Source: Mobula birostris (Eukaryota). From it: a DNA stretch of 64,000 bases. The stretch lies in contig NC_092374.1 in the NCBI RefSeq assembly GCF_030028105.1, forward strand, positions 158,062,432-158,126,431, given 5' to 3'. Shown in pieces: positions 17,717 through 61,250 of the stretch; the first letter of the stretch is position 1, and every line of letters begins with the position of its first letter. Both the position numbers and the translations under genes were made by a program. Below the pieces are notes generated by a model that did no database searches, was not told the DNA's origin, and saw only the letters and a program-made list of their open reading frames with translations.

Positions 17717-17964
17717 GCCTAGATAATTCCAAGGAGGGGAGGCTGGTTTCCATGATGTTCTGAGCTGTACAGTATCTACAACTCTGTGCAGTATTTTGTG
17801 GTCACATGCAGAGCATTGCTATACCAAAACATTATGTACTCACAAACATGGGAAAATCTGTAGATGGTGGAAATGACGAAGGGTATCGACCTGAAATATC
17901 GACTATTTATTCTTTTCCATAGGTGCCGCCTGACCTGCTGAGTCCCTCCAGCATTTTGTGTGTG

Positions 17965-18255
17965 TGACATTGTTTACCCATATAGAATACTTCCTATGGT
18001 GCACTAATAAAAATTGGTAAGGGTCAGTGGAGACATGCCTCCCGAGGAGGTGGAGGCATTGATGAGCTTTTTTGGCCACGACATCTACGTGATTGGACCA
18101 GGATGGGCTATTGGTGATGTTCACACCCAGGAACTTGAAGTTCTCAACCCTCTCAGCCTCAACACCATTAATGTAGACCTGAGCACCTGCCACTTCTTGA
18201 ACTCAATGACCAGCTCTTTTGTTTTGCTGACATTGAGGGAAAGGTTGTTGTCATG
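17965..18255 (-). mobile_element. Rex1-type LINE fragment
   Basis: INGVEAERVENFKFLGVNITNSPSWSNHVDVVAKKAHQ. Confidence 0.8.
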
Positions 18256-21639: not shown

Positions 21640-22075
21640 ATGCACAAACGGCTGCAGATGCTGGAAGCTGCAGCAACACACAAGGTTCTGTAGGGTCTTG
21701 GCCTCAAAGCATCAATTGTTCATTTCCCTGCATAGATGCTGCCTGTCCTGATGAATTCCTTACGCTCAAAATTTCCAGCATCTGCAGAATCTCTTTGTGT
21801 TTATGAGATGCTGGAGGAATTCAGTGGGTCAAAAAGATTCATGGAGGGAAATGGACAGTCGACCACATTTGCCTATTATACCCTCCTCACTTGGATCTAC
21901 CTGTTGCTTGCCATCTCCTGCTCTACCCCTTCCCTCCCATCCTTTTTTACTGCTGTCTCTATTCTTTCTTTCAGTCCAGATGAAGGATCTTGACTCGAAA
22001 GGTTGACTGTCCATCTTCCTCCATGGATGCTGTCTGACCTGCAGACCTCCTCCAGCATCTTGTGTGTTGCTCTGT
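21640..22075. mobile_element. Two adjacent PLE-derived short elements with inverted ends
   Basis: tgcagatgctggaa/ttccagcatctgca pair. 21806-21864 is the reverse complement of about 22001-22059. Degenerate hammerhead at 21972-22009. Confidence 0.7.
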
Positions 22076-22800
22076 CTCTATCCACTATCCCATCTTCTCA
22101 CTGCAGCCTTGAAAATTCCTTCACATGGATGTAACCAAAGTCTACATGGAAGCAGACTGTGAATCTTTAACTTGTTGTTTTATGTAGTGACACACAGTGC
22201 TGAAACAGGCTCTCCAGCCCATGATCTCCAAGTCAACCATTGCAGCCACCTATACTAATTCTATTTACTCATATTAAGTCCATAGCCTTTGAAGCATGGT
22301 GTCGAGATGTTGTACTGATTAAATTAAATCCAATAAAAACCCACACAGTGTTAATGGCGAATCACCTTGGGCTGTCTCCGTTTGATGGTGTGTGGAACAG
22401 GACAAGCTCAGTATAGTAAATTGCCTGTTTTAAGTACAACATTAATGGAGCAGAAGGCATTGAAGAGGCAAATAATTTCTTCTTTTTGTGTTTACTTGCA
22501 TAAGCATTTATTGTTTCCCAAAGTTTCCAAAGTAGCTCTCATTGATTGAAACAGTATTTTCTGCTTTATTAATGACACAAGGTGGATATTTCTGTTCCCC
22601 ACTTGATTTTGTCTGAATCCAGTCGAGGAAAAAAGCTTAGTATTTGAAAGATGAGCTGGGCTACTCAGTGCAGGCTGGCATTCCCAGGAATCAAGAAACC
22701 AGTCTCTCTTTTTTGACTCAGCAGTGTAGGCTGGATTGATGACCCAAGAGGCAGCAGTAGGTTTGTTCCTTACAAGGGCAATTGGGCAACTACTTGGAAG

Positions 22801-23549
22801 AAGCAACACTCACAACACGCTGGAGGAACTCAGCAGGTCGGGCAGCATCCGTGGAAAAGATCGGTCGGCGTTTCGGGCCGGAACTCTTCGTCAGGACTGT
22901 AGAGGGAAGGGGCAGAGGCCCTATAAAGAAGGTTGGGGGAGGGTGGGAAGGAGAAGGCTGGTAGGTTTCAGGTGAAAAACCAGTAAGGGGAAAGATAAAG
23001 GGGTGGGAGAGGGGAGGCAGGGAGGTGATAGGCAGGAAAGGTGAAGAAAGAATAGGGGAAAACACGATGGGTAGCAGGAGGCGGCGGAACCATGAGGGAG
23101 GTGATAGGCAGCTGGGGGAGGGGCAGAGTGACATAGGGATAGAGGAAGGGAGGGGGAGGGAATTACCCGAAGTTGGAGAATTCTTTGTTCATACCAAGGG
23201 GCTGGAGACTACCCAGACGGTATATGAGGTGTTGCTCCTCCAACCTGAGTTTAGCCTCATCATGGCAGTAGAGGAGGCCATGTATGGACATATCTGAATG
23301 GGAGTGGGTAGCAGCGTTGAAGTGGGTGGCTACGGGGAGATCCTGTCTGTTTTGGCGGACGGAGCGGAGGTGCTGGACGAAGTGGTCCCCCAATCTGCGT
23401 CGGGTTTTACCGATGTAGAGGAGGCCACACCGGGAGCACCGAACACAATAGATGACCCCAACAGATTCACAAGTGAAGTGTTGCCTCACTTGGAAGGACT
23501 GTTTGGGGCCCTGAATGGTGGCAAGAGAGGAGGTGTAGGGACAGGTCAC
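22801..23549 (-). mobile_element. Penelope-like element, 5'-truncated: GIY-YIG endonuclease C-terminus, purine/pyrimidine-skewed UTR and pLTR with a degenerate hammerhead
   Basis: ORF 23163..23549 VIYCVRCSRCGLLYIGKTRRRLGDHFVQH..VATHF..LEEQHLI..LQPLGMN. Hammerhead-like sequence at 22862-22899 on the minus strand. Confidence 0.92.
23163..23549 (-). pseudogene. PLE GIY-YIG endonuclease fragment
   Basis: VIY..C..C..YIG.T motif with conserved His and Glu residues. No RT or start context upstream. Confidence 0.85.
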
Positions 23550-27840: not shown

Positions 27841-27905
27841 AATACTTGATGCAATACTTGTTCTTTCATCTTCTCAAGGACACAGACAGTCTTCCAGCTG
27901 AAGCA

Positions 27906-28073
27906 TAAACACAAAATACTCTGCAGATGCTGGGGTCAAAGCAACACTCACAACACACTGGAGGAACTCAGCAAGTCGGGCAGCATCTGTGGAAACGATC
28001 AGTCAATGTTGACCGATTGTTTCCACGGATGCTGCCCGACCTGCTGAGTTCCTCCATCATGTTGTGAGTGTTG
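27906..28073. mobile_element. PLE-derived mini fold-back element
   Basis: 67-bp inverted arms 27941-28007 and 28008-28074 with 8 mismatches. Perfect 15-bp TSD cttccagctgaagca (27891-27905 and 28074-28088). Confidence 0.9.
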
Positions 28074-28396
28074 CTTCCAGCTGAAGCAGCAATTCCCTTG
28101 CAGTTTATCCAATCCCATTCACTATATTTGGCATTAATAAGTGGATTCCTTCATGCTGGAGAAATCAAATGTTGATATGGTGATTGCTGTGTGGAACACC
28201 TACGTTCAGGGCTCAGTAGGTGGTTCTGAGCTTCTCCTACCTGCCACTTTAGTACTCAATCCCAGTCCCTCCCTAATTTATTGGTCTTTGATCTCATATA
28301 TTGTTACATTGAGGCCTAACATAAGGTTGAGGAACTGCACCTCATCTTCTGTCTCGGTACATTGCAGCCTTCTGAACTTAGCAATAAACTCTACTA

Positions 28397-28964: not shown

Positions 28965-30514
28965 CTTTGCGACTTCCGGTAACTTGATTTCTCTGTCTGT
29001 ATCAGTTATTTATTTGTAATATTGGCTGAGATTATATGTTTCTTTTCCTTTTTATTTTATTTTAGTCTGGATGTGGAGAACATGCACAAGTGGATCTGCA
29101 GGATGTGTCTTCCTGCATTGCATTTTGCGACGCTGTTTTCTTTTGTCTGTGCTCTCACTCTCCTACTGCATGCACTCACTCATTGACCAGATAACCTTGT
29201 AGTTAAGCTTATAGTTGCAGGTAAGCTTATAGTTACCCTGGCTTTACCCTATCAGTGACATTACCCCAAACACCTTTCCTACAGATTAACAAGCCGTGTC
29301 TCTCTCCTTCTCAATTCTGATGAAGAGTCTTTGATCTGAAGCATCAACTCTGTTCTTTTTCAGCAGAAGTGGCCTGACCTGTTGAGTCCTTTCAGCATTT
29401 TTGGCTTTTATCTTAGGACAAAGTAGTCCACTTGATAGGCATCATATCTTTATTCTAACCACTGGATCTAACTATGTCTGGTACATGTTGGGTACGACAG
29501 CATTTTGGGAGAGACTTCACCAGGTGGACTAGAGGGGCTGACCACTACTTTCTCAAGGACAAGTAGAGATGGATAAGAAATGCCGGCCTTCATAGCAACA
29601 CCGAGATCCGGAAAATGTTTGAAAAATAGTTGTAGGAAAGAGGTGAAATGGAATGCAGCATATTTCAAAAATGTCCATGCACAGGCTAGATGATAAATTA
29701 CCTTTAATTCTTGTCGACTTTGCAAGACCTCGTTTGTGTAATAAATGCATAGAAATGAGGAATTGAATTTCCCCCGAGTACTGGTGTGAAATTGGTTTTC
29801 AGCAGTTTAAAGCACTTTCCTTAGCTGTTGTACTGCATAGCACAATGTGAGATTCAGACGTGGGGTGATGATTTGCCTACGGCTTCTCATTGGAGCCAAG
29901 TTGTTCTTAGAGCTGAATTGCACTGCTGCTGAGCGGCGTGTGCCATTGTTTACTGCATACTCGTGACATGAAAGGCAGCCCCTCACAGCGATGCCTTGTG
30001 AAGCCTTCTAATTCCTCTCTGGTTTGAATGCAGTCTTTTTATGATGCACATCTGCTTCCAAATGCAGAAATAGAGAAGGACAAAACTGGAAAGGCTTTGC
30101 GGCCCAAGTAATATTTGAGTTCTAAACAGCTCAAAACATTTTCTGCAAAGCTGCATGTAGTGGTATAATTAGGACTCAAAAATAAAACTGCAGATGTTGG
30201 AAATCTGACATGTTAGCTGTTTCTCTTACCACAAATCTTCTGGGTGTATGCCCTGAGTTCTTTCAGCATTTTCTGCTTTTAGTATAATTTGATCTTAGCT
30301 TCTTGGAATTCAGGAAAAGTGGTGATATAATTAGATCTAATTACAAAGGTATCTTACCCTCTTTGTAGTTTAGATAAGAAAAAGAGATCTTATTACAGCT
30401 TGCAAGATGATGAATGAGTGAAGGGAGAAAGATGGGGTTGAAAGAGTAAATACTGCTGGAATGTTTCACTTGGTGGGAATATCTAAAACTCTAGACATGG
30501 CTTTGGGTTATAAG

Positions 30515-31288
30515 ACCATAAGACCATAAGACAAAGGAGCAGAAGTGGGCCATTCGGCCCATCGAGTCTGCGCCGCCATTTTATCATGAGCAGATCCATT
30601 CTCCTATTTAGTCCCACTCCCCTGCCTTCTCACCATAACCTTTGATGCCCTGGCTACTCAGATACCTATCAATCTCTGCCTTAAATACACCCAATGATTT
30701 GACCTCCACTGCCTCTCGTGGCAACAAATTCCACAGATTCACCACCCTCTGGCTAAAAAAATCTCTTCGCATCTCTGTTCTGAATGGGCGCCCTTCAATC
30801 CTTAAGTCATGCCCTCTCGTACTAGACTCCCCCATCATGGGAAACAACTTTGCTACATCCACTCTGTCCATGCCTTTCAACATTCGAAATGTTTTTATGA
30901 GGTCCCCGCTCATTCTTCTAAACTCCAAGAGTACAGTCCAAGAGCGGACAAACATTCCTCATACGTTAACCCTCTCATTCCCAGAATCATTCTAGTGAAT
31001 CTTCTCTGAAGCCTCTCCAACATCAGCACGTCTTTTCTTAAATAAGGAGCCCAAAACGGCACACAGTACTCCAAGTGAGGTCTTACCAGCACCTTATAGA
31101 GCATCAACATCACATCCCTGCTCCTATACTCTATTCCTCTAGAAATGAATCCCAACATTGCATTCGCCTTCATCACCACCGACTCAACCTGGAGGTTAAC
31201 CTTAAGGGTATCCTGCACGAGGACTCCCAAGTCCCATTGTATCTCAGAACTTTGAATTCTCTCCCCATTTAAATAATAGTCTGCCTGC
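30515..31288 (-). mobile_element. Young CR1/HER1-type LINE 3' part inside an older CR1
   Basis: LYKVLVRPHLEYCVPFWAPYLRKD..FFSQRVVNLWNLLP. (TAAGACCA)n tail. TSD ttataag. Confidence 0.92.
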
Positions 31289-36029: not shown

Positions 36030-38214
36030 TGGAGCAGTATTTAAGTGGAGTAAGGGAAATTACAGTGGTATGAGAGAGGACTTGGCCAAAGTGAATTGGA
36101 AAGAGCTGCTGGCAGGGATGTCAACAAAGCACAATGGCATGCGTTCCTGGGAAAAATGAGGAAGATGTATTCCAAAAATGAAGAAATACTCAAATGGAAA
36201 AATAGTACAACCATGGCTGACAAGGGAAGTCAAAGCTATTGTAAAAGCAAAAGAAAGGGCGTACAATAAAGCAAAAATTAGTGGGAAGATAGAGGATTGG
36301 AAAGTTTTTAAAAACCTACAGAGAGAAACTAAAAATATCATTGGAAGGGAAAAGATGAAATTTGAAAGCAAGCTAGCAAATAATAACAAAAGTGGATAGT
36401 AAAAGTTTCTTCGAGTATGTTAAAAATAAATGAGATATGAGAGTGGATATAGGACTGCTAGAAAATGAGGCAGGAGAAATAATAGTGGGGGACAAACAGA
36501 TGGCCTATGAACTAAATGAGTATTTTGCGTCAGTCTTCGCTGTGGAAGACACTAGCAATATACTTGATGCTGTAGTTATGTGAAGGAAGATAAGTGGGCA
36601 CAGTTACTGTTACAAGAGAGAAGGTGCTCAAAAAGCTGAAAGACCTAAAGGTACGTAAGTCAACCGGACCAGAGGAACTGCACCCTAGGGTTCTGAAAGA
36701 GGTAGGATTAGAGATTGTGGTGGCATTAGAAAATCATTGGACTCTGGCATGGTGCCAGACGACTGGAAAATTGCAAATGTTACTCAACTCTTTAAGAAAG
36801 GAGGAAGGCAGCAGAAAGAAAATTATAGACCAATTAGCCTGGCCTCAATGGTTGGGAAGGTGTTAGAGTACTTGTTAAGGATGAGGTGATGGAGTACTTG
36901 GTGACACAGGACAACGTAGTACAAAGTCAGCATGGTTTCCTTCAGGGGAAATCCTGCCTGATGAACTTGTTGGAATTCTTTGTGGAGATTACAAGTAGGA
37001 TAGATAAAGGGGATGCAGTGGATGTTGTATATCTGGATTTTCAGAAGACCTTTGACAAGGTGCCACACATGAGGCTGCTTACCAAGTTAAGAGTCCATGG
37101 TATTACAGGAAAGTTACTAACATGGTTAGAGCATTGGCTGATTGGTAGGAGGCAGTGAGTGGGAATAAAAGTATCCTTTTCTGGTTGGCTGCCAGTGACT
37201 AGTGGTGTTCTGCAGGGGTCGGTGTTGGGATCATTTCTTTTTATGCTGTATATAAATGATTTAGATGATGGAATAGATGGCTCTGTTGCCGAATTTGCAG
37301 ATGGTACAATGATTGGTGGAGGGGCAGGTAGTGTTGAGGAAACAGGTAGGGTGCAGAAGGACTTAGACAGATTAGGAGAATGGGCAAGAAAGTGGTAAAT
37401 GGAATACAATGTTGGAAAATGCATGGTCATGCACTTTGGTAGTAGAAATAAATGTGTGGACTATTTTCTAAACTGGGAGAAAATACAGGAATCTGAGATG
37501 CAAAGGGACTTGGGAGTCCTTGTGCAGAACACCCTAAAAGTCAACTTGCAGGTTAAGTTGGTGGTGAGGAAGGCAAATGGCATGTTAGTATTCATTTCAA
37601 GAGCAAGGATGTAATGGTGAAGCTTTCTGAGGCACCGGTGAGGCCTCACCTTAAGTATTATGAACAGTTTTGGGCCCCTTATCTTAGAAAAGATGTGCTG
37701 GCATTGGAGAGGGTCCAGAAGGGGTTCACAAGGATGATTCCAGGAATGAAAGGGTTATCATAAAAGGAACATTTGATAGCTCTGGGTCTGTACTCGCTGG
37801 AATTCAGAAGGATGTGGGGGAGATCTCATTGAAATCTTTTGAATGTTGAAAGGCCTAGACAGAGTAGATGTCAAAAGGGTGTTTCCCATGGTGGGAGAGT
37901 CTAGGACAAGAGGGCACAGCCTCAGGATAGAGGGGTGCCCTTTCAAAACAGAGATGCAAAGAAGAATCTTTAGACAAAGCATGGTGAATTTGTGGAATTT
38001 GTTGCCACATACAGCTGTGAAGGCCATGTTGTTTGGTGTATTTAAGGCAGAGATTGATAGGTTCTTGATTGGACATGGCATCAAAGGTTACGGGGAGAAG
38101 ACCGGGAAGTGGGGTTGAGGAGCAGATAGAAAAAAAGGATCAGCCATGATTGAATGGCAGAGCAGACTCGATGGGCCAGATGGCCTAATTCTGCTGCTAT
38201 GTCTTATGGTCTTA
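36030..38214 (+). mobile_element. CR1/HER1-type LINE, about 2.2 kb, RT pseudogene
   Basis: SQHGFLQGKSCLMNLLEFF..VDVVYLDFQKTFDKVPH; SGVLQGSVLG..YINDL..FADGT. Tail tcttatggtctta. Confidence 0.95.
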
Positions 38215-38734
38215 CGATATTGAAGCTATTTTTGAGCTTGGTGTTATGTGCCCTGAAGTTTTTGTGACTTCTTCCTGACAGAAGTTGGGATCCCCTTTAT
38301 ACCTTGAATTTTGGCAAACCAGATGGCAACAGCTTTGTCCCTCTTATAAAGAAAGCTATGGCTCATGTGTAGCATCCATAGGTGCTGCCTGATCTGTCGA
38401 GTTCCTCCAGCATTTTGTGTTTGTTGCTCTGGATTTCCATTATCTGCGGAATCACTTGTGTCTGTTCATAATCGTACTGTTCCTGTGGTCTATTTAGTCT
38501 GCCTGTGTTTGTTGATCTAAAATGCCTCTTGGTTAATGTGAACTTTCATTTTGGAAGTTTCATCCTCATTTCTAAGTTCTTCCATGATCTCCTGCGTTTG
38601 CTCTCTTTGTACTCTTGTCCTGAATTATTTATTAAACTCATAGCCAATTTTATTTGTTGCCATCTCGTTGAAAGTCTTTGGGATGGTCCAAAACATTGGG
38701 GCACGATGATCTAATCAGATTGTTTTCTAGATTA

Positions 38735-39620
38735 ATGAACATAAAATGCTGGAGGAACTCGAGTTGTCAGGCAGCATCTATGGAGGGGAATAAACAGCCA
38801 ACGTTTCAGGTTGAGACCCTTCATCAGGTTGGAAAAGAAGGGGGCAGAAGCCAGAATACGGTGGGAGGAGGGGTTGTGATACAAGCTGGCTGATGATTGG
38901 GGAGACTAGGTGATGGGAAGTGGGGTGGGTGGGGGAGGTGTATGATGGAAGAAGCTAATGTAACTTTTGCTTTGGCTAGTAGCCTAATATAGGGGGTGAT
39001 AGCCCCCAGCCCGGCCAAACTTAAGAAATCTCGTTCGGGTGGATGCTGCGCGATATGTCTCCTGTTACAAATCAGTACCACGAAATAACAACCAGTACAC
39101 AATATGCGATTAAACGATTGAGCTTTATAATTCTTAATTTGACTATATAGTTAGTAAAGAAACAAAAAAAGGAAAAGGGCCCATTCTCATGAAACAGTCT
39201 AATGTGCAAATGTTGGAGCTCACTGATAAGCTGGTCGTCCACCATCGACCTCCCCTGATCGTCGCCGATCTTCAGACCCTCGCTCCAAGTCCACTCTGTC
39301 CAACTCACTCCATTCACGTCTTCTCCCCTCATCTCTCCTTAGCAAAAGACCTCGAAAATCTCATCCAGACTCACAAGAAAGAACAGCATTTCTCTCATTG
39401 GATAGCCCCGGCATTCCAAAACCCCGTTAAGTCTAGTCCAAACCCAAATAGTACTGTTACAGAGAAACCATTACATTAGCAGTGAAACATTACGGAGAGG
39501 TCATTACATTAGCAGTGAAACCTTACAGCATGTTACACTAGGTAGTCATAGATGGAAGGGGTGAAGTGCTGAAGAAGAAGGAATGTAATAAGAGATGACA
39601 GTGGACATTGGAAGAAAGTG
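38735..39620 (-). mobile_element. PLE-derived short element (hammerhead core at 38795-38832) split by a solo LTR
   Basis: Minus strand reads CTGATGA AGG gtctcaa CCT GAAA CGTT. The core is intact but stem I is disrupted. Confidence 0.7.
38959..39537. mobile_element. Solo LTR (579 bp)
   Basis: TGTAAC...GTTACA termini. 4-bp TSD-like ctaa/ctag. Internal tandem cattacattagcagtgaaac x2. Confidence 0.75.
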
Positions 39621-41064
39621 TTTTCTCAATCAATCCCCTCAAAGTTACACATGAAAGCATCAAAGCCCACTCATTAATTATCAGGGAAGTTACTTACATT
39701 GCAATGAGGATGGCTAATGGGTATTGCCAGTGGAGTGGTGCAGTGTATCTTCCATGGTATGCAAGTTTCTCAACCAGCTTCACACAACCGTCAGAAGAGT
39801 GTCAAATTAGTGGTGACATTCTGTCATTTAGATGGGAATGTGTTTTTAATGAGAGTGATAGTAAGCTGTTTTTGTAACACTTTAATTATCCTCAGTGAAA
39901 TTTCAAGCAGTAAAAGGTCCCTGGATATCTCAGATGATCAGTTTGGAGACAGGTGGAGACAGGAGTTCAGTGTTGGAGGGGGTAATGGAGATTGGGCAAT
40001 GGGTCTTGGAGGGAGTTGAAAATTAGGAAATGGGGCCCTGAAGAGAAAGATGTAGAATAGGCAATGGGTCTTGGAGGGAGAGGTGGAGAAAGGAATTGGG
40101 TGTTGGAGGGAGAGATGAAGATGTTGCATACAGCTTACACTTATGCAGCATCTTTACTGAAGGGATGGAGGGTGAGATGGAGATGGGCAAGAACATGCCA
40201 GAGGGATGAATGGAGCTTGGAAAAGGATGTTCAGTGGGAGAGGTGGGGACTGTGGATGAGGTATCAGACAGAGATGGGAATTATGAAATAGGGCTTGACT
40301 GGACAGGAAAAGGTGAAAATAGATTTCTCTGCTTTCTTGCTTCTTGAAATTTATTGTACAACAGTTGCAATCAAATAAAGATTCTGAAGTACAGGAGACC
40401 CAGCTGCAAAGGGTAAACCCAATGCCAAGTTTAGATGTGAATTGGCTCAATGCCAAGTAGTTTGGTCACATGATCATTCCCCCTGAAATGTTCACTTCTA
40501 GAGTTGGCAGTCTGAAGTCCAAACTGTAATGTTACAGCACGCACTCCCTCTCTGCTTCACTTTTCACTGGGTGAGTGGCCTTGCATTTGACATTGGCGAG
40601 CTGCTATTTCAATACCATGGGCTGTGGGGCCTTTTCATTTTGAGGAGCAGAGTGCAAGGTTACACTGGAAAAATAACACATACAACCTTTCAAAAGGGAA
40701 GCCTTCAGCCTGTCCTCACCAGCTGTTACACTCATTCCTGCTGATCTTCCCCTGAATCCATTAAGAAAGGAAATGAATCTGTCCTCGTACACTGAACAAC
40801 TGAGCAACAGCCATTATCAGGCACAACGCAAAGAAATGAAGGTTGAACTGGCCCATGTGCACTGTCAGGCAGCTTTTTATTAATTACTGAAAATGGGGAT
40901 CCACAGGAGGTGAGGATGAGGAAGGAATAAATTAAACTCATAGTCAAAATGGACTTTATTGCTACTTGTACATGTATACACAGATGCAATGAAAATCGTA
41001 CTTGTAACAGAATCACAGACACAGCTCATTGTATAAGCAATATTCACAGGAAAAAAGACGTAAA

Positions 41065-41240
41065 CATGAAAATGGCGGAGGAACTCAGCAGGTCAGGCAG
41101 CACCTATCAAGGGAATAAACAGTTGATGTTCCAGGCCAAGATCCTTCATCAGAACTTGACAACGCTGCCTGACTTGCTGAGTTCCTCCAGTGTTTTGCAT
41201 ATTGCTCGGGACTTCCAGCATCTGGAGAATCTTTTGTGCT
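41065..41240. mobile_element. PLE-derived fold-back element with a degenerate hammerhead
   Basis: ggaggaactcagcaggtcaggcagc ... gctgcctgacttgctgagttcctcc inverted pair. Confidence 0.7.
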
Positions 41241-42250: not shown

Positions 42251-43980
42251 CACCTCAGTGGCACTCGCAAGTGGAATCTCATGAGGTAACAGGATACAGG
42301 ATAAAGCAATGAAGGCTGATTTTTACGCTCAAAGCTGTGGACACACCTGCAGAGTGAATTTGGACAAAATACATTTTCATAGACACTAATAGACATTCTT
42401 TATTGCTTTCAGTTAATACAAGTGTCAAGAGTCAAACATGTGCAAGAGCAGATGTCTGCATAGCAGAGATGATGGGCAGCCATATTGACTTCAAGTTCAT
42501 GGCAACTGAAATGTGGAAAAAAATCTATCATCCAGCCCTACAATGTATTGTGTAACAACCTCAATATACTTAAAAGTATGCTAACAACACAAAGTGGGAA
42601 ATACTGATACCATACAATTGTGGTTGTGTTTTATTACTATATCCTCAATCAAAAGCAATAACAATAGCATTACACCCCGCAGAGGGCCTTTAAAACAGTA
42701 ACAACATCCCAAGTGTTTCCTCAGCACTGACATTGAAGGAAATTTGGCAACAGGTATCTTAAGGAGATACCTTGAACAGGTGTTGAAATAAAGAGGCAGG
42801 CGTTTAAGGAATGCTGTGAAGAAAAAAAGGAGCTGATGAAGTTTGAGAGGCTCAGGAAGAACCTCTCAAATTCTTCATACCTCCTTTCTTCCTTTGCAGG
42901 AAGAGAGCTGGTAAAGAAACTGAGAACATTTGGTAGTGTACAGGAGGTTGGAATTGGAAGGTGCAGCAAAAAGACTGGCCTGGAGGAGGTTGCAGAGATA
43001 TGGAGGGATGGGAAAACTAGGTTGAGAATTTTAAAACAGAGCTGTTCCCTCCAGATATTGAATGACAATGAAGTAGAAGAAGGAAGAAAATCGGATGAGA
43101 GTTAGTTCTTGAAATAGAACTCTGTGCACGTGATGGTGAGACCGAAATGGTGTGTTGCCGCCCAAGTGCCTGGGTCAGGGACGCTGTGGATTGGGTCCAC
43201 AACATTCTAAAGGGGGAGGTGAGCAGCCAGAAGTCTTGTTACATATTGGTAACAATGACATGGGTAGGAAAAGCGAGCTGGTCCTGAAGAGAGAAGCTAG
43301 GGTTGCTAGGTAGAAAGTTGAAAACCAGGACTAATCTCTGGATTGCTGCCTGTACCATGCACCAGTGAGGGTCAGAATAGGATGAATTGGCAGATGAATG
43401 TGTGGCCAAGAAACTGGTGCAGGGGAAAGGGTTTTAGATTTCTGGATCATCGAGATCTCTTCTGGGGGAGGTAGAACGTGTACAAAAGGGAACTGATATC
43501 CGAGTGGACAGGTTTACTAGAACTTTTGGGGTGGGTTTAGACTCATTTGGCAGGGGAATGGGAACTGGAGTGAAAGGATTGAGGATAGGGCTGTTGGTTT
43601 ACAAGATAGTGTATAGTGAGACTGTCAGGAAGGACAGGCAGATGATAGGGCAAAGTTGTGATCAGTGGTATGAGTTGCAGTGTAGAAGGGGGACAGAATT
43701 GAAGAGTGTTGGATACAGAATTAAAAATTTTATATTTGAATGCATGCAGTATACAGAATAAAGTAGATGATCTTATAGCACAGTTGGAGATTGGCAGGTA
43801 TGACTTTGGGGGAATCACTAAGTAGTGGCTTAAAGAAGATTATATCTAGGAGCTTAATATCAAAGGATACACTTTGTTTGGAAAGGACAGGCAAGTAAGC
43901 AGGATAGACAAAGGAGTGGATGTGTACTTGGATTTTCAGAAGGCGTTTGGCAAGGTGCCGCACATGAGACTGCTTAACAA

Positions 43981-45278
43981 CAAAATACTCTGCAGATGCT
44001 GGGGTCAAAGCAACACGCACAACATGCTGGAGGAACTCAGCAGGTCGGGCGGTATCCGTGGAAACGAACAGTCAACATTTTGGGCCGAGACCCTTCGTCA
44101 GGACTGAAGAGGGAAAGAGGGTGGGGGGAGGGTGGGAAGGAGAAGGTCGGTAGGTTCCAGGTGAAAAACCAGTAAGGGGAAAGATCAAGGGGTGGAGGAG
44201 GGGAAGCAGGGAGAGGATAGGCAGGAAAGGTGAAGAAGGAATAGGGGAAAGCACAATGGGTAGTAGAAGGAGGCAGAACCTTGAGGGAGGTGATGGGCAG
44301 CTGGATGAGGAGGCAGAGTGAAACTGGCATGGGGGAAGGGAGGGGGAGGGGGAGGGAATTACCGGAAGTTGGAGAATTCAACGCTCATGCCAAGGGGCTG
44401 GAGACTACCCAGACGGTATATGAGGTGTTACTCCTCCAACCTGAGTTTGGCCTCATCATGACAGAAGTGGAGGCCATGTATGGACATATCTGAATGGGAA
44501 TGTGAAGCAGAGTTGAAGTGGGTGGCAACGGGGATATCCAGTATTGTGGCGGACGGAGCGGAGGTGCTCGACGAAGCGGTCCCCCAATCTGCATTGGGTC
44601 TCACCAATGTAGAGGAGTCTGTTGGGGTCATCTATTGCATCTGCTGCTCTCAGTGCGGCCTCCTCTACATCGGTGAGACCTGTCGCAGATTGGGGGACCA
44701 CTTCGTCGAGCACTTCCGCTCCGTCTGCCACAACAGACAGGATCTCCCGGTTGCCACCAACTTCAACTCTGCTTCACATTCCCATTCGGGTATGTCCATA
44801 CATGGCCTCCGCTACTGCCATGATGAGGCCAAACTCAGGTTGGAGGAGCAACACCTCATATACCGTCTGGGTAGTCTCCAGCCCCTTGGTATGAACATCG
44901 AATTCTCCAACTTCTGGTAATTCCCTCCCCGTCCCTTCCCCCACCCCATTTTCACTCTGCCCCCTCCTCCAGCTGCCTATCACCTCCCTCATGGTTCTGC
45001 CCCCGTCTACTACCCATTGTGCTTTCCCCTATTCCTTCTTCACCTTTCCTGCCTATCACCTCCCTGCTTCCCCTTCCCCACCCCTTTATCTTTCCCCTTA
45101 CTGGTTTTTCACCTGGAACCTACCAGCCTTCTCCTTCCCACCCTCCCCCCACCTTCTTTATAGGGCCTCTGCCCCTTCCCTCTACAGTCCTGACGAAGGG
45201 TCTCGGCCCGAAACGTTGACTGATCGTTTCCACGGATGCTGCCCGACCTGCTGAGTTTCTCCAGCGTGTTGTGTGAGT
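43981..45278. mobile_element. Head-to-head inverted Penelope-like element (about 600-bp arms)
   Basis: Arms about 44014-44617 and 44660-45278 with a 42-nt spacer. GIY-YIG remnants on both strands. 11-bp TSD ctgcttaacaa (43970-43980 and 45279-45289). Confidence 0.93.
45185..45222 (+). ncRNA. Minimal type I hammerhead ribozyme (PLE type), core intact
   Basis: CAGTC-CTGACGA-a-GGG tctcgg CCC-GAAA-CGTT^GACTG. Stem I CAGTC/GACTG is perfectly paired and stem III is the palindrome ACGT. Confidence 0.85.
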
Positions 45279-52832: not shown

Positions 52833-54447
52833 AGATAGTCAAAAATAGATTATTACCTGACAACCATCGGAATCTTGAACTGGCCATGAATATGTCTATT
52901 CACCAATGCTCTTGAGCTGATTCTACAATTTACAGACTCACTTTTAAGGACTCTTTACAACTTATGTTCCCAATATTATTCTTATTTGCATAGTTTGTCT
53001 TCTTTTGTTCATTGGTGTTTGTCAGACTTTGTTTATGTAGTTTTCGTAATTTTTTTTGTATTTTTTTCCTGTAAATACCAGCAAGTAAATTCATCTTAAG
53101 TTTGTGTAGTATATTATAACATAATAATAATAAACTTACTTTGAACTTTGAAGTTTTTTCCTTTTCTTTGAATTGTAAGAGGGAAATACTTGAATATAAA
53201 GGACCATTGTGACTTGCATTCCTGGATGTTAAAGTGATTAGTTTTCAAGCAATAAATATGCCATCACCCGTGAATTCCCTTCCAAGTCACATACCAGTCT
53301 AACTTTGAAATTATTCCTTCACTGCCACCTGAGCTAAATCCTGGAGTTCCTTATCTAACAGCCTTGGGAGAGGACCTTCACCTTGTAGATTACAGTGTTA
53401 TGAGAAAGCTACTCGTAACCATATTGTCGGGGGGGGGCATGTGAATTAGGAATTTGGCACAAAATATTAGTTGGGAGAAGAAATTCTTATCAGGATGCCA
53501 GTTAACCCATGCATTGTGATTGGAATGCTGCCAGGTTATTTTTTTGTGTGTATGTGAGAGGATCTGTTTGTCGGTGTTCACAATATTTTTGTTCCCTGGA
53601 GAACCTTTATATATTGTGATTCCTTCCTATTCAGAATATTTGTGTTTCTGGGTTGCTCTGGCACTGTTGTCAATAAAATTAGTCACAACTTCAAGGGAAA
53701 ATGCAGCTTGTTGAACAGTCCAGATGAAGGCCTTGATGGGAAACCTTGGTTGTTTATCTCCCTTCACAGATGCTGCCTGACCTTCTGGGTTCCTCCAGCA
53801 ATTGATTTTTTGGTTGAGTAATATCATTGCCATTGCATTAGGAGAACCATTTTGTTTTCGCATTCAATAATGAAGATCAGCAGTTTCTGAGTGAAATAGG
53901 ATACAATATCCTACATCTCTGAGACTGACTAATGTGAAGGGAGAACAGTGGAGGATTTTTGGACAATAAGTAACCCATAATCCAACTCCATGGAAACCTC
54001 AATGGTTCTCCATCTGTTTGCTAAACTCCCATTCCCTTCATTGTCCTGGTTCCCATACCTCTTTCTACTAACTAGCTCTGGCTCCCTCTCTGCCATAAGA
54101 TCATAAGACATAGAAGCAGAATTAGGCCATTTAGCCCATCAAATCTACCCCACCATTTCATCATAGCTGATCCCAGATCCCATTCAACCTCATACACCTG
54201 CCCTCTCACCATATCCCTTGATTCCCCTACCTATCAGGAATCTATCAACTTCCGCTTTGAATATGTCCACGGTCTTGGCCTCCACTGCAGTCTGTGGCAG
54301 AGCATTCCAGAGATTCACCACTCTTCAGCTAAATAATGTAGACTTCCTTCTGTCCTAAAAGAAGTTATCCCGTTAAGCTTATATATTGACTGGAAATTTG
54401 GCTATAATACCATGTTCCAAAAGTGAATTAAATATGTTGGGTGTTTA

Positions 54448-56499: not shown

Positions 56500-57822
56500 G
56501 TTTGTAAAAATTGGGCCCTATATCTAAGAAAGGATGTGAAGGCATTGTAGAGACTATAGATGAGGTTTACAAGGATGATCCAAGAAATGAAAGGGTTAAT
56601 GTATGGAGGAGCATTTGTTAACTCTGGGCCGGTACTCACTGGAGTTTAGAAGAGTTAAAGAGGATCTCAAAGGTTCATCAAAGGTTAATTTATTATTAAA
56701 GTATACAACCCTGAAATTCTTCTTCTCCAGATGGCCATGAAACCAAGAAAGAAAAGAGTAGCAGCTGGATTATCAACTCCCAAATCCCTCCTCACCACAC
56801 AAAAAAAAAGGTCAAAAACGGAACAGGCACATGGACCTCCAAATCCCTCTCCCCACACACAAAAAAAAAGAGAAAGATTTGGAGAAAAACACAGAATGTA
56901 AAAAACCATAAGACTGAAAAAAAGCCCACAATCCAAGTACACATCCAAACCAAAACGTAGAAAACCTGGGCAACATTCTTCCTCTCCATAGCAGTCTGAT
57001 CACACCAGTGATCAGAAGTCTGTCTTCCCTCCCTGTAGCAGAGAGATTGCACCGGCTATGAAAAAGGCAGTCTCCTCTCTCCAGTGGCAGTGTGATCCTC
57101 CAGCGATAAGGCTGCAGGTAGCTGGTGTTTCAATCTCCCTTGTCGCTTTAATCAGCGATCAATGCAAGTTTTAATTGGCGAAATGGAGTTGAACATTGGC
57201 TCACAGCCTTCTCACCACGAGGTTCCCATATGCTACCTCTGCCTCCCGGAATCTCCTTCAAGACTGCAGAGTTCTGAAACATCCAAACAATGTCCAATTT
57301 GCAAATCACAGGCTCCAACAGTTCCAGAATCACATTCAAGATGAAAAACAAACATAAAAGGCATAAAAGAAGTGAAACATATGGTTTCTTGAGCTATGAA
57401 AATGTTGACCGAAGGATGTTGTACAGAAATGCCATCTTGACTGGAAGTCACTGAAGGATACAGTACTGAAAACTGTAAGGCCCCAGGTAGAGTAGACATG
57501 GAGAGAATGTTTCCAGTATTGAAAAAGTCTTGGACCAGAAGGCACAGTCTCAGAATACAAGGATGTCCTTTTAGAATGGAGATGAGGAATAATTTATTTA
57601 GTCAGGGTGGTGAATCTGTGGAATTTATTACCACAGTCAGCTGTGGAGGCCAAATCACATGGCATGTTTAAAGTGGGGGTTAATAGTTTCTTAATTAGTG
57701 AGGATGTCAAAGGTTATGGGGAGAATGGGATTCAGAGGGAATATAAACCAGCTATGGTAGAATGGCAGAGCAGACTTTATGTGCTGAATGGCCTAATTCT
57801 GCTCCTACATCTTATGGTCTTG
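56500..57822 (+). mobile_element. CR1 LINE 3' part split by a family B retroposon
   Basis: PYLRKDV..RFTRMI and RVVNLWNLLP. Tail tcttatggtctt. Confidence 0.85.
56669..57447 (-). mobile_element. Non-coding retroposon family B
   Basis: Colinear with 52152-52832. The 5' end reads cttccagtcAAGATGGC. Confidence 0.7.
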
Positions 57823-58027
57823 TATTTTTGAGGTGTGATGTCTGCATTTCCACCTATCTGAGTGTTCAACTGTAACAACATCATTGTATGCAAATTGGCT
57901 GGGAATTGCACTGCTTGCAATCTTCAAATTCACTGTAATATTAAAAATAAAATAACCTCCTCTAATGGATAATGACTGTACCACTTGTTTATCTTGGGCA
58001 CACATCAACAGACTCCTGTCTAATCTC

Positions 58028-58203
58028 AAACACGAGGAATTCTGCAGATGCTGGAAATTCAAGCACCACACATCAAAGTTGCTGGTGAACGCAGCAGGCC
58101 AGGCAGCATCTCTAGGAAGAGGTACAGTCGACGTTGACTGTATCTCTTCCTAGAGATGCTGCCTGGCCTGCTGCGTTCACCAGCAACTTTGATGTGTGGT
58201 TCT
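58028..58203. mobile_element. PLE-derived mini fold-back element (near-perfect palindrome)
   Basis: 68-bp arms 58065-58132 and 58133-58200 with 2 mismatches. 11-bp TSD tgtctaatctc (58017-58027 and 58204-58214). Confidence 0.92.
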
Positions 58204-58489
58204 TGTCTAATCTCGCTTGTATTTCTGGTTAGCTGTCATACTACAGCTGACGACTGATTCTCAGAAGCTGATACAAAACAAACTGCACAAACTACTTATT
58301 GGTAAGGCAGACAATGCTGACAGAACCTCACATTTTCTGCTCTATAGTTACCATATCCAACATCAATCTTAATTCATACCGTAAATCCTTAATCTTTTTT
58401 TAAAATATAGATCCTGCTTTTATAGGTTGATTTTGTTCAGAAGTTAGAAAATACACAAAATCCATTCAACTTGGTAACCATGGCCATTG

Positions 58490-59435
58490 AGGCATAGACT
58501 GAGTGCATAGCCAGGGACTTCTTTCCCATAATGAAAATGAAGGGGCATAATTTTAAGGTGATTGGAGTAAAGTGTGGTGGGGGGGGAGAATGTCAGATTT
58601 TTTTACACTAATAGTGGTGGGTGCGTGGAATGCCCTGCTAGGAGTGGTGATTAGAAGCAGATACATTAGGGACATTTAAGGAATTCTTATATAGGCATAT
58701 GGATGATAGAAAAATGGAGGGTTAGATTAATCTTAGAGTAAGTTAATAAGTTGGCACAACATCATGGGCTGAAGGGCCTGTACTGTGCTGTACTGTTCTA
58801 TGTTTTAACCATCCTTTGCTGTACTATAATAAGACCATAAGATATAGGAAGAGAATTAGGCCATTTGTCCAGTCGAGTCTGCTTCACCATTTCATCAAGG
58901 CTGATCCATTTCCCTCTCAGCCCCAGTCTCCTGCCTTTTCCCTGTATCCTTTCATGCCCTGACTAACCAAGAATCTACCAACCCCTGCCTTAAATATACT
59001 CAGTGACTTGGCCTCCATAGTCACTTCAGGTCAAGTCGTCACCTTGTCATTTCAACCATAACTGCTGGTACAGTACACAGTAAAAACAAGACAATGTTTT
59101 TCAGGACCATGGTGCTACATGAACAAAACAAAAACTACACTGAACTACGTAAAACAACACAAAAGTACACTAGACTACAGACTAAAATGCACAAAACAGT
59201 GCAGACATTACAATAAATAATAAAAAAGACAATAGGCACAGTAGAGGGCAGTAGGTTGTTGTCAGTCCAGGCTCCGGGTATTGAGGAGTCTGATGGCTTG
59301 GGGGAAGAATGATTGTGTTGAATGCTGAACTGAAGTCTATGAACAGCATTTGAAAATACTTGTCTTTTTTGTCCAGGTGGGTTAGGGCAATGAATTCCAC
59401 AGATTCCCAATTCTTTGGCTAAAGAAATTCCTCCC
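58490..59435. mobile_element. Cluster: CR1 tail (+, 58490-58805) and CR1 tail (-, 58829-59435), the latter interrupted by a Rex1 fragment (59025-59390)
   Basis: CR1 tail repeats. [26 protein letters not shown] is joined directly to a Rex1 3' UTR. Confidence 0.7.
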
Positions 59436-60149: not shown

Positions 60150-61250
60150 CTGAAAGGATAAACAAATTGCTGGAAGAACTCAGCAGGACTGTCAGCATCT
60201 GTGAGGCAGAGAGAAGGTGAATGTTCTCAAACATGATCCTGCATCACATCTGAGAGTGTAGAGGGAAGATAGCCAGCTTCAAAAAGTGTGGGCGGGGAGG
60301 GGGTGTAGGTGGCAGGTGGACGCAGGTAAGCATGGCGGGGTGAAGAGATGTGTGATGACAGGTGAGAGGGGGTAAGGGTGGGGGAAAGTATTGAGACAGA
60401 GGCTGTTAGGTGATACTGTAGATGAAATTAGATAAGTGAGACCATGAGACCATAAGACATAGGAGCAGAATTAGGCCATTTGGCCTATCGAGCCTGCTCC
60501 ACCGTTCAATCATGGCTGACTCTTTTTTTTTTCTCCTCTTCAACCCCAGTTCCTGGCCTTCTCCCCGTAACTTTTGATGCCATGCCCAATCAAGAACCTA
60601 TCAATCTCTGCCTTAAATACACCCAATGACCTGGCCTCCACAGCTGCATGTGGCAACCAATTCCACAAATTCACCACCCTTTGACTAAAGAGGGTGGGAT
60701 GATGGGCAGATGGAATCAGGGTAATATTGGGGGGGAGATGGGGGGAAATGAAATAAAAATGGAGACACCATCGGTGGACCTGTAGGAATGAGAAAGGAAT
60801 ATAGGGGGTATGGGCTACCTGAAATTCAAAAAAAATCAATGTTCATACCATTGGGTAGTAGATGCCCAAGTGAAATATAAAATGTTCTTCTAGTTTGTGC
60901 TTTACCTTACTGAGGCAGTGGGAAAGCAGAAAACAGACATGTTAGTGTGGGAATGGGATGTGGAGTTGAAATGACAAGGAACTAGAAGCTCAAGCGGGCT
61001 ACTATGGACAGAGCTGCAGAGGCAGAGAAACTAAGAAAAGAGATTGCTTTTTTTGTGGGAGATGGATTGGGAAGAGATAGAGTCGAAGTCGCTTTGAGAG
61101 TTGGTGGGTTTATAGTAGATGGTGTTTAGCTTATCTCCTGAGATGGGAACAGAGACCTCCTGGAAAGGGAAAGAGAAGTCTGAGATAGTCCAGATGAAAT
61201 TGAAGGCATGGTGGAAGTTGGTGGCAAAGGTGATAAAGTTGATAAATTCC
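60150..61250 (-). mobile_element. Old PLE with a CR1 tail inserted at about 60440-60690
   Basis: FINFITFATNFHHAFNFIWTISDFSFPF..IYYKPTNSQS (PLE RT thumb) and pLTR-like end at 60160-60250. Confidence 0.75.

Follow-up and report, generated by a model that had tools for sequence, protein, structure and literature searches.

A short head-to-head insertion of a Penelope-like element in Mobula birostris and the joints, proposed priming sites and 5' stops of its relatives

The window, that is the whole stretch of 64,000 nucleotides of Mobula birostris DNA that was analysed, carries at positions 58028-58203 an insert of 176 bp flanked by perfect 11-bp target-site duplications (TSDs). The insert is made of two pLTR arms in inverted orientation, and its features are given in Table 1 together with the other loci discussed below. 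Positions within the pLTR are numbered from 0, the first base 3' of the predicted hammerhead cut. Alignment with the reference showed that nucleotides 58028-58135 correspond to +101 to -6 (96% match) and nucleotides 58131-58205 to -5 to +69 (95% match). The arms meet at the axis 58132|58133 with a spacer of zero, the joint being a 4-6 nt microhomology at ACGT common to both arms. They pair over 68 nt with two mismatches, at the third and eleventh pair from the axis; beyond these, one further mismatch and four more pairs extend the pairing to 73 nt at 96%, the final two positions lying within the TSD. The hairpin exceeds chance by far, the folding energy of the insert as DNA being -87.3 kcal/mol and that of 200 shuffles -23.2 +/- 2.9 kcal/mol (z = -22). 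The size, the TSDs, the spacerless arms centred on ACGT and the 32-nt one-sided extension reported in the first-pass annotation were all recovered on re-measurement. The site used there for comparison was also located correctly (GAAACGTT at 45210-45217 and GACTG at 45218-45222, preceded by CTGACGA), though this copy belongs to subfamily B. Likewise, the arms do represent the pLTR portion 3' of the minimal hammerhead core, and the locus was borne out as a single TSD-making insertion of a Penelope-like element (PLE).

Table 1. Positions of the insert, of other repeats in the window and of two further loci
Feature	Position	Strand	Remarks
Left target-site duplication	58017-58027		11 bp, TGTCTAATCTC, identical to 58204-58214
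Unmirrored 32-nt tail, 3' end of sense arm	58028-58059	-	~+70 to +101
Tail-bearing pLTR arm, sense on minus	58028-58132	-	+101 back to ACGT axis
ACGT, helix III palindrome of minimal hammerhead	58131-58134		axis 58132/58133
Inverted tail-less pLTR arm, sense on plus	58133-58203	+	axis to ~+69
Right target-site duplication	58204-58214		11 bp, TGTCTAATCTC
Second mini fold-back, subfamily B	27891-28088		15-bp TSD; axis 28007/28008 at CpG-decayed ACGT
Long head-to-head PLE insertion, subfamily B	43972-45278		~1.3 kb; hammerhead motif in each arm, tail on left arm
Reference: complete minimal hammerhead motif in longer subfamily B copy	45186-45222	+	motif read by eye against PMC4209133
Further pLTR fragments, several older subfamilies	21716-21860, 22765-23546, 17844-17965, 38741-38828, 41064-41197, 53710-53805		
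ATAAGACCATAAGA-type repeats	30512-30907, 37819-38226, 54095-54333, 57604-57822, 58818-59020, 60444-60691		
L298	G000:C8:42094061-42097461		one TSD-bounded insertion
L038	G000:C1:4034189-4037220		one insertion; inverted arm stops at -33, then N-terminal ORF sequence; sense arm starts at -32

The window also contains a second mini fold-back, a long head-to-head PLE insertion and further pLTR fragments of several older subfamilies, some of them with hammerhead cores, the window total being at least a dozen. A different abundant family of short repeats, whose unit starts with ATAAGACCATAAGA, adjoins the insert on both sides.

Judged by its sequence, the insert is a minimal, non-coding insertion of an EN+ PLE. 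Its arms match the 3' end of element L072 at 95-96%, and the parent element encodes a reverse transcriptase (RT) with a DKG motif, a CX4CxxC linker (CKWNKCYTC in L072) and, at the C-terminus, a GIY-YIG domain with cysteines between GIY and YIG. The frames of L072 and L299 gave matches to RVT_1 (E 6e-05) and GIY-YIG (E 2e-04), both just short of the Pfam cut-offs. According to passages of PMC8557442, a CX2-5CxxC linker before GIY-YIG is present in Neptune and Nematis and missing from Penelope and Poseidon; under these definitions the linker places Neptune/Nematis-type motifs in the family, and a Poseidon-type label was dropped because the linker motif ruled against it.

The pLTR of longer copies holds a predicted minimal hammerhead motif. 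In the reference copy the order is helix I 5' strand, CTGACGA, helix II, GAAA and ACGT, with the cut site at 45217|45218. An Rfam scan of the 64-kb window gave no hammerhead at gathering score, so the motif, together with Cervera and De la Pena 2014, is the basis of the assignment; the minimum-energy fold of the monomer differs from the hammerhead fold. The metazoan PLE minimal hammerheads described in passages of PMC4209133 show the same motif with palindromic 15.2-16.2, and the same source mentions dual hammerhead motifs on opposite strands 100-700 bp apart in Schistosoma. Unlike these motifs, the insert lacks the core and cannot be a ribozyme, since it retains no more of the motif than helix III and the 3' strand of helix I.

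The insert is one of thousands of short head-to-head PLE stubs in the 4.0-Gb genome, in which the 32-mer of the tail region (58034-58065) has 8,148 exact matches. Of 170 junctions, 161 had the tail on a single side and the other 9 on neither. TSDs of 8-19 bp, with a mode of 14 bp, were identified in 89 of 103 fold-backs, the mismatched-flank controls giving 1 of 103, and paralogous empty sites of the host repeat of the ACGT-axis copy L002 carry the target once. As an unselected sample, both arms were mapped in the 99 elements represented by the first 100 exact matches of the tail on contig C1 (one element has two tails). An inverted, 5'-truncated pLTR next to the 5' end, as in the insert, was present in 59 of the 99; 31 of the 99 were mini fold-backs, defined by both arms ending 3' of -70, and 4 of these 31 were without any core. 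In the same sample the long inverted arms cluster at -371 to -403, -476 to -543 and -686 to -697, in small numbers, and seldom end in the pyrimidine-rich 3' UTR, a frequent end zone of the tailed arms.

This layout is known in outline. Passages of PMC8557442 and PMC3846280 describe a PLE insertion unit composed of an inverted truncated pLTR, a sense pLTR, a one-sided tail of 30-40 bp and a TSD, and the second notes palindromes at the inverted junction, so the class which the first-pass annotation did not know to be described is not new in its general form. The insert shares with the canonical EN+ PLE unit (Craig et al. 2021; Arkhipova et al. 2013, as far as the passages cited go) the arrangement, the one-sided tail of 32 nt, the TSD and the palindromic junction, and differs in that both arms are only ~70-105 nt long. 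A literature search, with Arkhipova 2006, Evgen'ev and Arkhipova 2005, Repbase/Dfam entries and the supplementary figures of PMC11167929 outside its scope, found no description of ACGT-centred stubs or of the stop at -31/-32 reported below.

Head-to-head junctions of the insert's subfamily were counted genome-wide using exact 12-nt anchors (+2 to +13) on both arms and spacers of 0-90; this count omits copies with a changed anchor, including the insert itself, and a few complex loci fall into two classes. There were about 5,800 junctions, 697 with a spacer of 0-30, 3,105 with 31-60 and 2,036 with 61-90, that is 5,141 with a spacer above 30. The ACGT axis corresponds to spacer 10, for which 15 matches were obtained, 9 of them true mirror joints by eye (about 0.15% of junctions), and the control spacer 12, where there is no palindrome, gave 2 matches. 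The cleavage-site palindrome GTCGAC (spacer 4) accounted for 45 junctions and a 15-nt quasi-palindrome reaching from helix II to GAAAC (spacer 25) for 276, of which 20 were inspected and 17 showed an overlap of 7-12 nt. The mean per spacer length within 0-30 was 22, above the 9 ACGT joints. No ACGT-centred joint was present among the first 50 listed junctions of spacer 0-30, the 59 unselected inverted pairs or the 31 unselected mini fold-backs. Among 32 subfamily B junctions of spacer 0-30, scored by eye and with one row duplicated on an unplaced contig, 20 had spacer 25 and 1 was ACGT-centred.

These counts bear on the central proposal of the first-pass annotation, namely that ACGT is a preferred joining point which defines a stereotyped class of hairpin insertions devoid of the ribozyme core. 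ACGT-axis stubs do recur independently (the 9 exact-anchor copies, the insert and L004), with different flanks and short-arm ends (+41 to +74 by alignment); spacer 10 does exceed spacer 12, and two such stubs lie within the window. Preference is nevertheless refuted in two subfamilies by 9 joints among 697 (and among the ~5,800), 1 of 32 in subfamily B and 0 of 59 in the unselected pairs, and loss of unstable spacerless palindromes is no explanation, the equally spacerless cleavage-site class being five times commoner. Nor are the hairpins typically without a core, part of which is retained in 27 of the 31 unselected minis. We therefore give this proposal hardly any credence. Its expectation that junctions would not be evenly spread along the pLTR held, and the peak lies elsewhere than at ACGT. 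ACGT is a real yet minor microhomology; the hammerhead region has several self-complementary spots, and this one is seldom used. The 64-kb window holds two ACGT-axis stubs, more than their genome-wide rarity leads one to expect, an excess for which window selection may be the reason.

The type of joint was scored in 101 listed junctions with a spacer above 30, in essence the 50 heading the list of each class. Overlaps of 1-3 nt were found in 33, overlaps of 4-7 nt in 5, no overlap in 10 and inserted or unaligned bases in 53; by eye, many of the inserts resemble copies of nearby arm sequence. The junctions of L184, L146, L117, L118 and L079 carry short tandem re-copies of arm sequence, which suggests repeated slippage or re-priming while joining.

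Mapping of arm ends at base level in these 101 junctions revealed that the 5'-most arm end lies at -31/-32 in 41 and at -33 to -29 in 61, and that tailed and tail-less arms share the same end peak. The 63 junctions without overlap ambiguity gave 30 arm ends at -31/-32, 5 at -30 and 4 at -33. In subfamily B, for which 50 of 83 junctions were listed, 49 arms reach -28, and 24 of these stop at -31/-32, 1 at -33 and 6 at -34; helix I of subfamily B could end at this minor -34 peak. By the motif reading, -32 is the first base of the helix I 5' strand and thus the outer edge of helix I. The unselected sample agrees: 27 of 79 tailed arms end in -5 to -35 where 6.2 are expected from the upstream background rate (p 3e-11), as do 20 of 50 inverted arms (3.9 expected) and 9 of 35 tailed arms without an inverted partner (2.8 expected, p 0.001). 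Since copies without inversion show it, the stop is independent of any annealing of the two arms. Arm lengths are coupled within an insertion, 14 pairs being core-core, 18 long-long and 1 mixed (Fisher p 2e-8), and L038, the sole mixed pair, also breaks at -33 before ORF sequence. The arms thus end non-randomly within the hammerhead core with a peak at -31/-32, in two subfamilies and in non-inverted copies.

Because arm lengths are coupled and non-inverted copies stop alike, the stop would be a property of the template, most simply an RNA 5' end; a defined RNA 5' end is the likeliest candidate for its cause. We put even chances on transcription starting there; an exonuclease halting at helix I is possible though doubtful, a protein or splicing factor blocking at the AG is unlikely, and any other cause is less likely still. 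Subfamily A reads TTAGTCC at -34 to -28 and several copies of B read TCAGTCC, which we take to be full matches to the initiator consensus YYANWYY with its A at -32. The region -55 to -31 of subfamily A (e.g. L072) contains a branch-point-like TACTAAC/TACTAGC, a pyrimidine tract and a tandem CAG/TAG just 5' of helix I, and the same bases at -34 to -28 presumably form the AG of such a branch point, pyrimidine tract and acceptor-like signal. The initiator-like motif is thus no independent evidence, as it is equally a pyrimidine tract plus AG. These signals resemble the intron end described for Penelope of D. virilis, in which, according to passages of PMC2377424 and PMC4209133, an intron of 75 nt ends at helix I, with transcription starting 46 nt upstream of that intron. 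A spliced upstream exon was rejected for the family studied here, as the 103 arms stopping at -29 to -35 have no exon in common: 92 abut an inverted pLTR, 5 another piece of the element and 6 flanking or unassigned DNA. A cap-derived G would precede -32; a G was found there in 14 of 40 arms (p 0.47), a test confounded by the partner arm. In 5 copies, from 30 loci, in which the 5' pLTR is contiguous with the ORF, the starts are at +19, -13, -54 and, in two, far upstream, so that none of the 5 starts at -31/-32 and 3 extend further upstream; since some of these copies start far upstream, read-through templates also exist.

How the two arms arise is best told from the 59 unselected inverted pairs. 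In 36 of them the inverted arm overshoots the tailed arm's start by more than 10 nt, the reverse being true of 12. The 36 pairs need two primings, because a tail-primed strand cannot copy sequence beyond its own reach, nor can the tail be supplied by a strand primed at +68. For these pairs snap-back of a single strand is excluded and two separately primed cDNAs joined end to end are favoured. The 3' ends of short arms cluster at +56 to +74 and those of tailed arms at +94 to +101. Non-CpG variants common to both arms numbered 47 in the 103 fold-backs, which are not an unselected set, against 7.9 +/- 2.6 in 1,000 shuffled pairings, while at two diagnostic sites pairs with disagreeing arms number 8 of 95 and 5 of 92, the background being 4 in 960 (0.4%). 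Since variants are shared and disagreement is above mutation, both arms would come from one and the same template sequence in some 70-80% of pairs and from different ones in the remainder. The arm variants fit twin priming on one RNA, or on the RNAs of one active source, with some mixing, and gene conversion between arms could add to the sharing.

The insert was thus probably formed, in our view with moderate confidence, from twin-primed cDNAs joined head to head. Two cDNAs would be primed from the two nicked target strands at two neighbouring sites, with the tailed arm primed at +101 and its tail-less partner near +68, and both would usually copy the same RNA or RNAs of one source. Short stubs would derive from templates with their 5' end at about -32, at the outer edge of helix I; after trimming, the ends of the cDNAs would be joined head to head through 0-6 nt of microhomology or short inserts, and in the insert the joint would happen to use the ACGT palindrome. 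The first-pass annotation had offered this origin from opposite target strands beside snap-back, and it is the better supported of the two, given the 36 of 59 pairs, the discordant variants and the nicking and extension of both strands in vitro (passages of PMC11167929). Taken alone, the symmetric arms of the insert fit snap-back or a later central deletion equally, and the case rests on the family.

In the self-priming model (Arkhipova et al. 2013) the nascent strand folds at a palindrome and copies itself, and passages of PMC3846280 interpret palindromic inverted junctions in this way. Such snap-back accounts for arm variants shared far above chance, for stereotyped joints that sit on palindromes and for the 12 of 59 pairs with the longer tailed arm, as folding of a tailed cDNA requires; it is unlikely given the 36 inverted arms that reach beyond the tailed arm and the ~20-30% of informative pairs with differing variants, as mixing is not expected under pure snap-back. 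Within one strand, a zero-loop turn at ACGT is also sterically impossible. Loss of the middle of a longer inverted copy by microhomology-mediated repair after insertion would likewise yield an ACGT-centred palindrome; long inverted copies are common (18 of 59 pairs are long-long) and the stereotyped joints are microhomologies, yet this deletion leaves unexplained both the stop at -31/-32 in non-inverted copies and the near-lack of mixed pairs (one, L038). Microhomology repair, moreover, usually destroys perfect palindromes and seldom creates them, and we consider central deletion improbable.

Propagation of a mini element as a unit, from a SINE- or MITE-like master, agrees with the 40 scored loci that match the whole 176-bp layout and is otherwise very hard to sustain: junctions vary among those copies, the ACGT-axis copies have differing arm ends and variants, and variants are mirrored within a copy while asymmetries are not common between copies. 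Identity with a MITE or self-propagating SINE was accordingly rejected, given the variable junctions and short-arm ends, the one-sided tail and the TSDs of 8-19 bp. Equally little speaks for stubs delimited by ribozyme self-cleavage, with cDNAs running off RNA cut at the hammerhead site. The 45 junctions centred exactly on the cut site are what this predicts; they make up less than 1% of the ~5,800, the 6-bp GTCGAC palindrome accounts for them equally well, the insert and most copies include bases 5' of the cut, and none of 35 non-inverted copies ends at +5 to -4. Hammerhead cleavage was also dispensable in vitro, according to passages of PMC11167929.

That in vitro system is Poseidon of Anolis carolinensis (Frangieh et al. 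2024, PMC11167929), for which passages of the paper report nicking and extension of both strands, a predicted dimer and two RT start sites flanking the tail. These two starts match the arm ends at +68 and +101 found here. Anolis Poseidon belongs to a different clade, the family described here having the CX2-5CxxC linker and Neptune-type motifs, and the passages cited from PMC11167929 do not treat inverted junctions or 5' ends of genomic copies. The passages of Craig et al. 2021 and Arkhipova et al. 2013 on EN+ PLEs favour self-priming, a reading with which most pairs in this genome disagree, and give no base-level junction spectrum. Non-LTR retrozymes, described in passages of bioRxiv 10.64898/2026.07.22.740005, are likewise non-autonomous and derived from a PLE terminal repeat; they are head-to-tail tandem units with whole ribozymes, whereas the insert is a single head-to-head stub with its core absent, and identity with them was rejected. 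The formation of tandem and inverted PLE ends is stated as open in passages of PMC8557442.

In twin priming of L1 elements the second target strand reportedly primes a second cDNA, giving an inverted 5' part, a microhomology joint and a TSD. The arms of L1 copy non-overlapping RNA segments while those of the PLE copy the same pLTR stretch; for this reason an L1-type inversion was rejected for the insert, although the process works alike.

In itself the insert is unremarkable debris from a known class of elements, a single data point in the very large natural record left by PLE insertion. The interest lies in the -32 stop and in what supports twin priming rather than in the ACGT axis: for most copies the junction record speaks against self-priming as published, and it directs attention to -32 and to two priming sites (+68 and +101) that can be tested in the existing in vitro system. 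For annotators, it is of note that such stubs mimic MITEs or pre-miRNA hairpins.

A speculative extension, which we think possible but less likely than not, is that these PLEs prime twice near the RNA 5' end and run off a defined end at the outer edge of helix I, producing cDNAs of a strong-stop-like kind comparable to those of LTR elements; a jump of such a cDNA to an RNA 3' end would give rise to tandem and full-length copies, and the thousands of minis would be failed jumps in which the two cDNAs captured each other. If true, a single cycle of this kind would account for pseudo-LTRs as well as for inverted ends and tails. The R2 RT is a documented case of template jumping (passages of PMC8857657). 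Locus L298 shows, in order, an inverted pLTR, a sense pLTR from -13, the 5' half of the ORF, an A run and a pLTR from -31/-32 with a tail, and this single case looks like a jump from the RNA 5' end to an oligo(A) 3' end.
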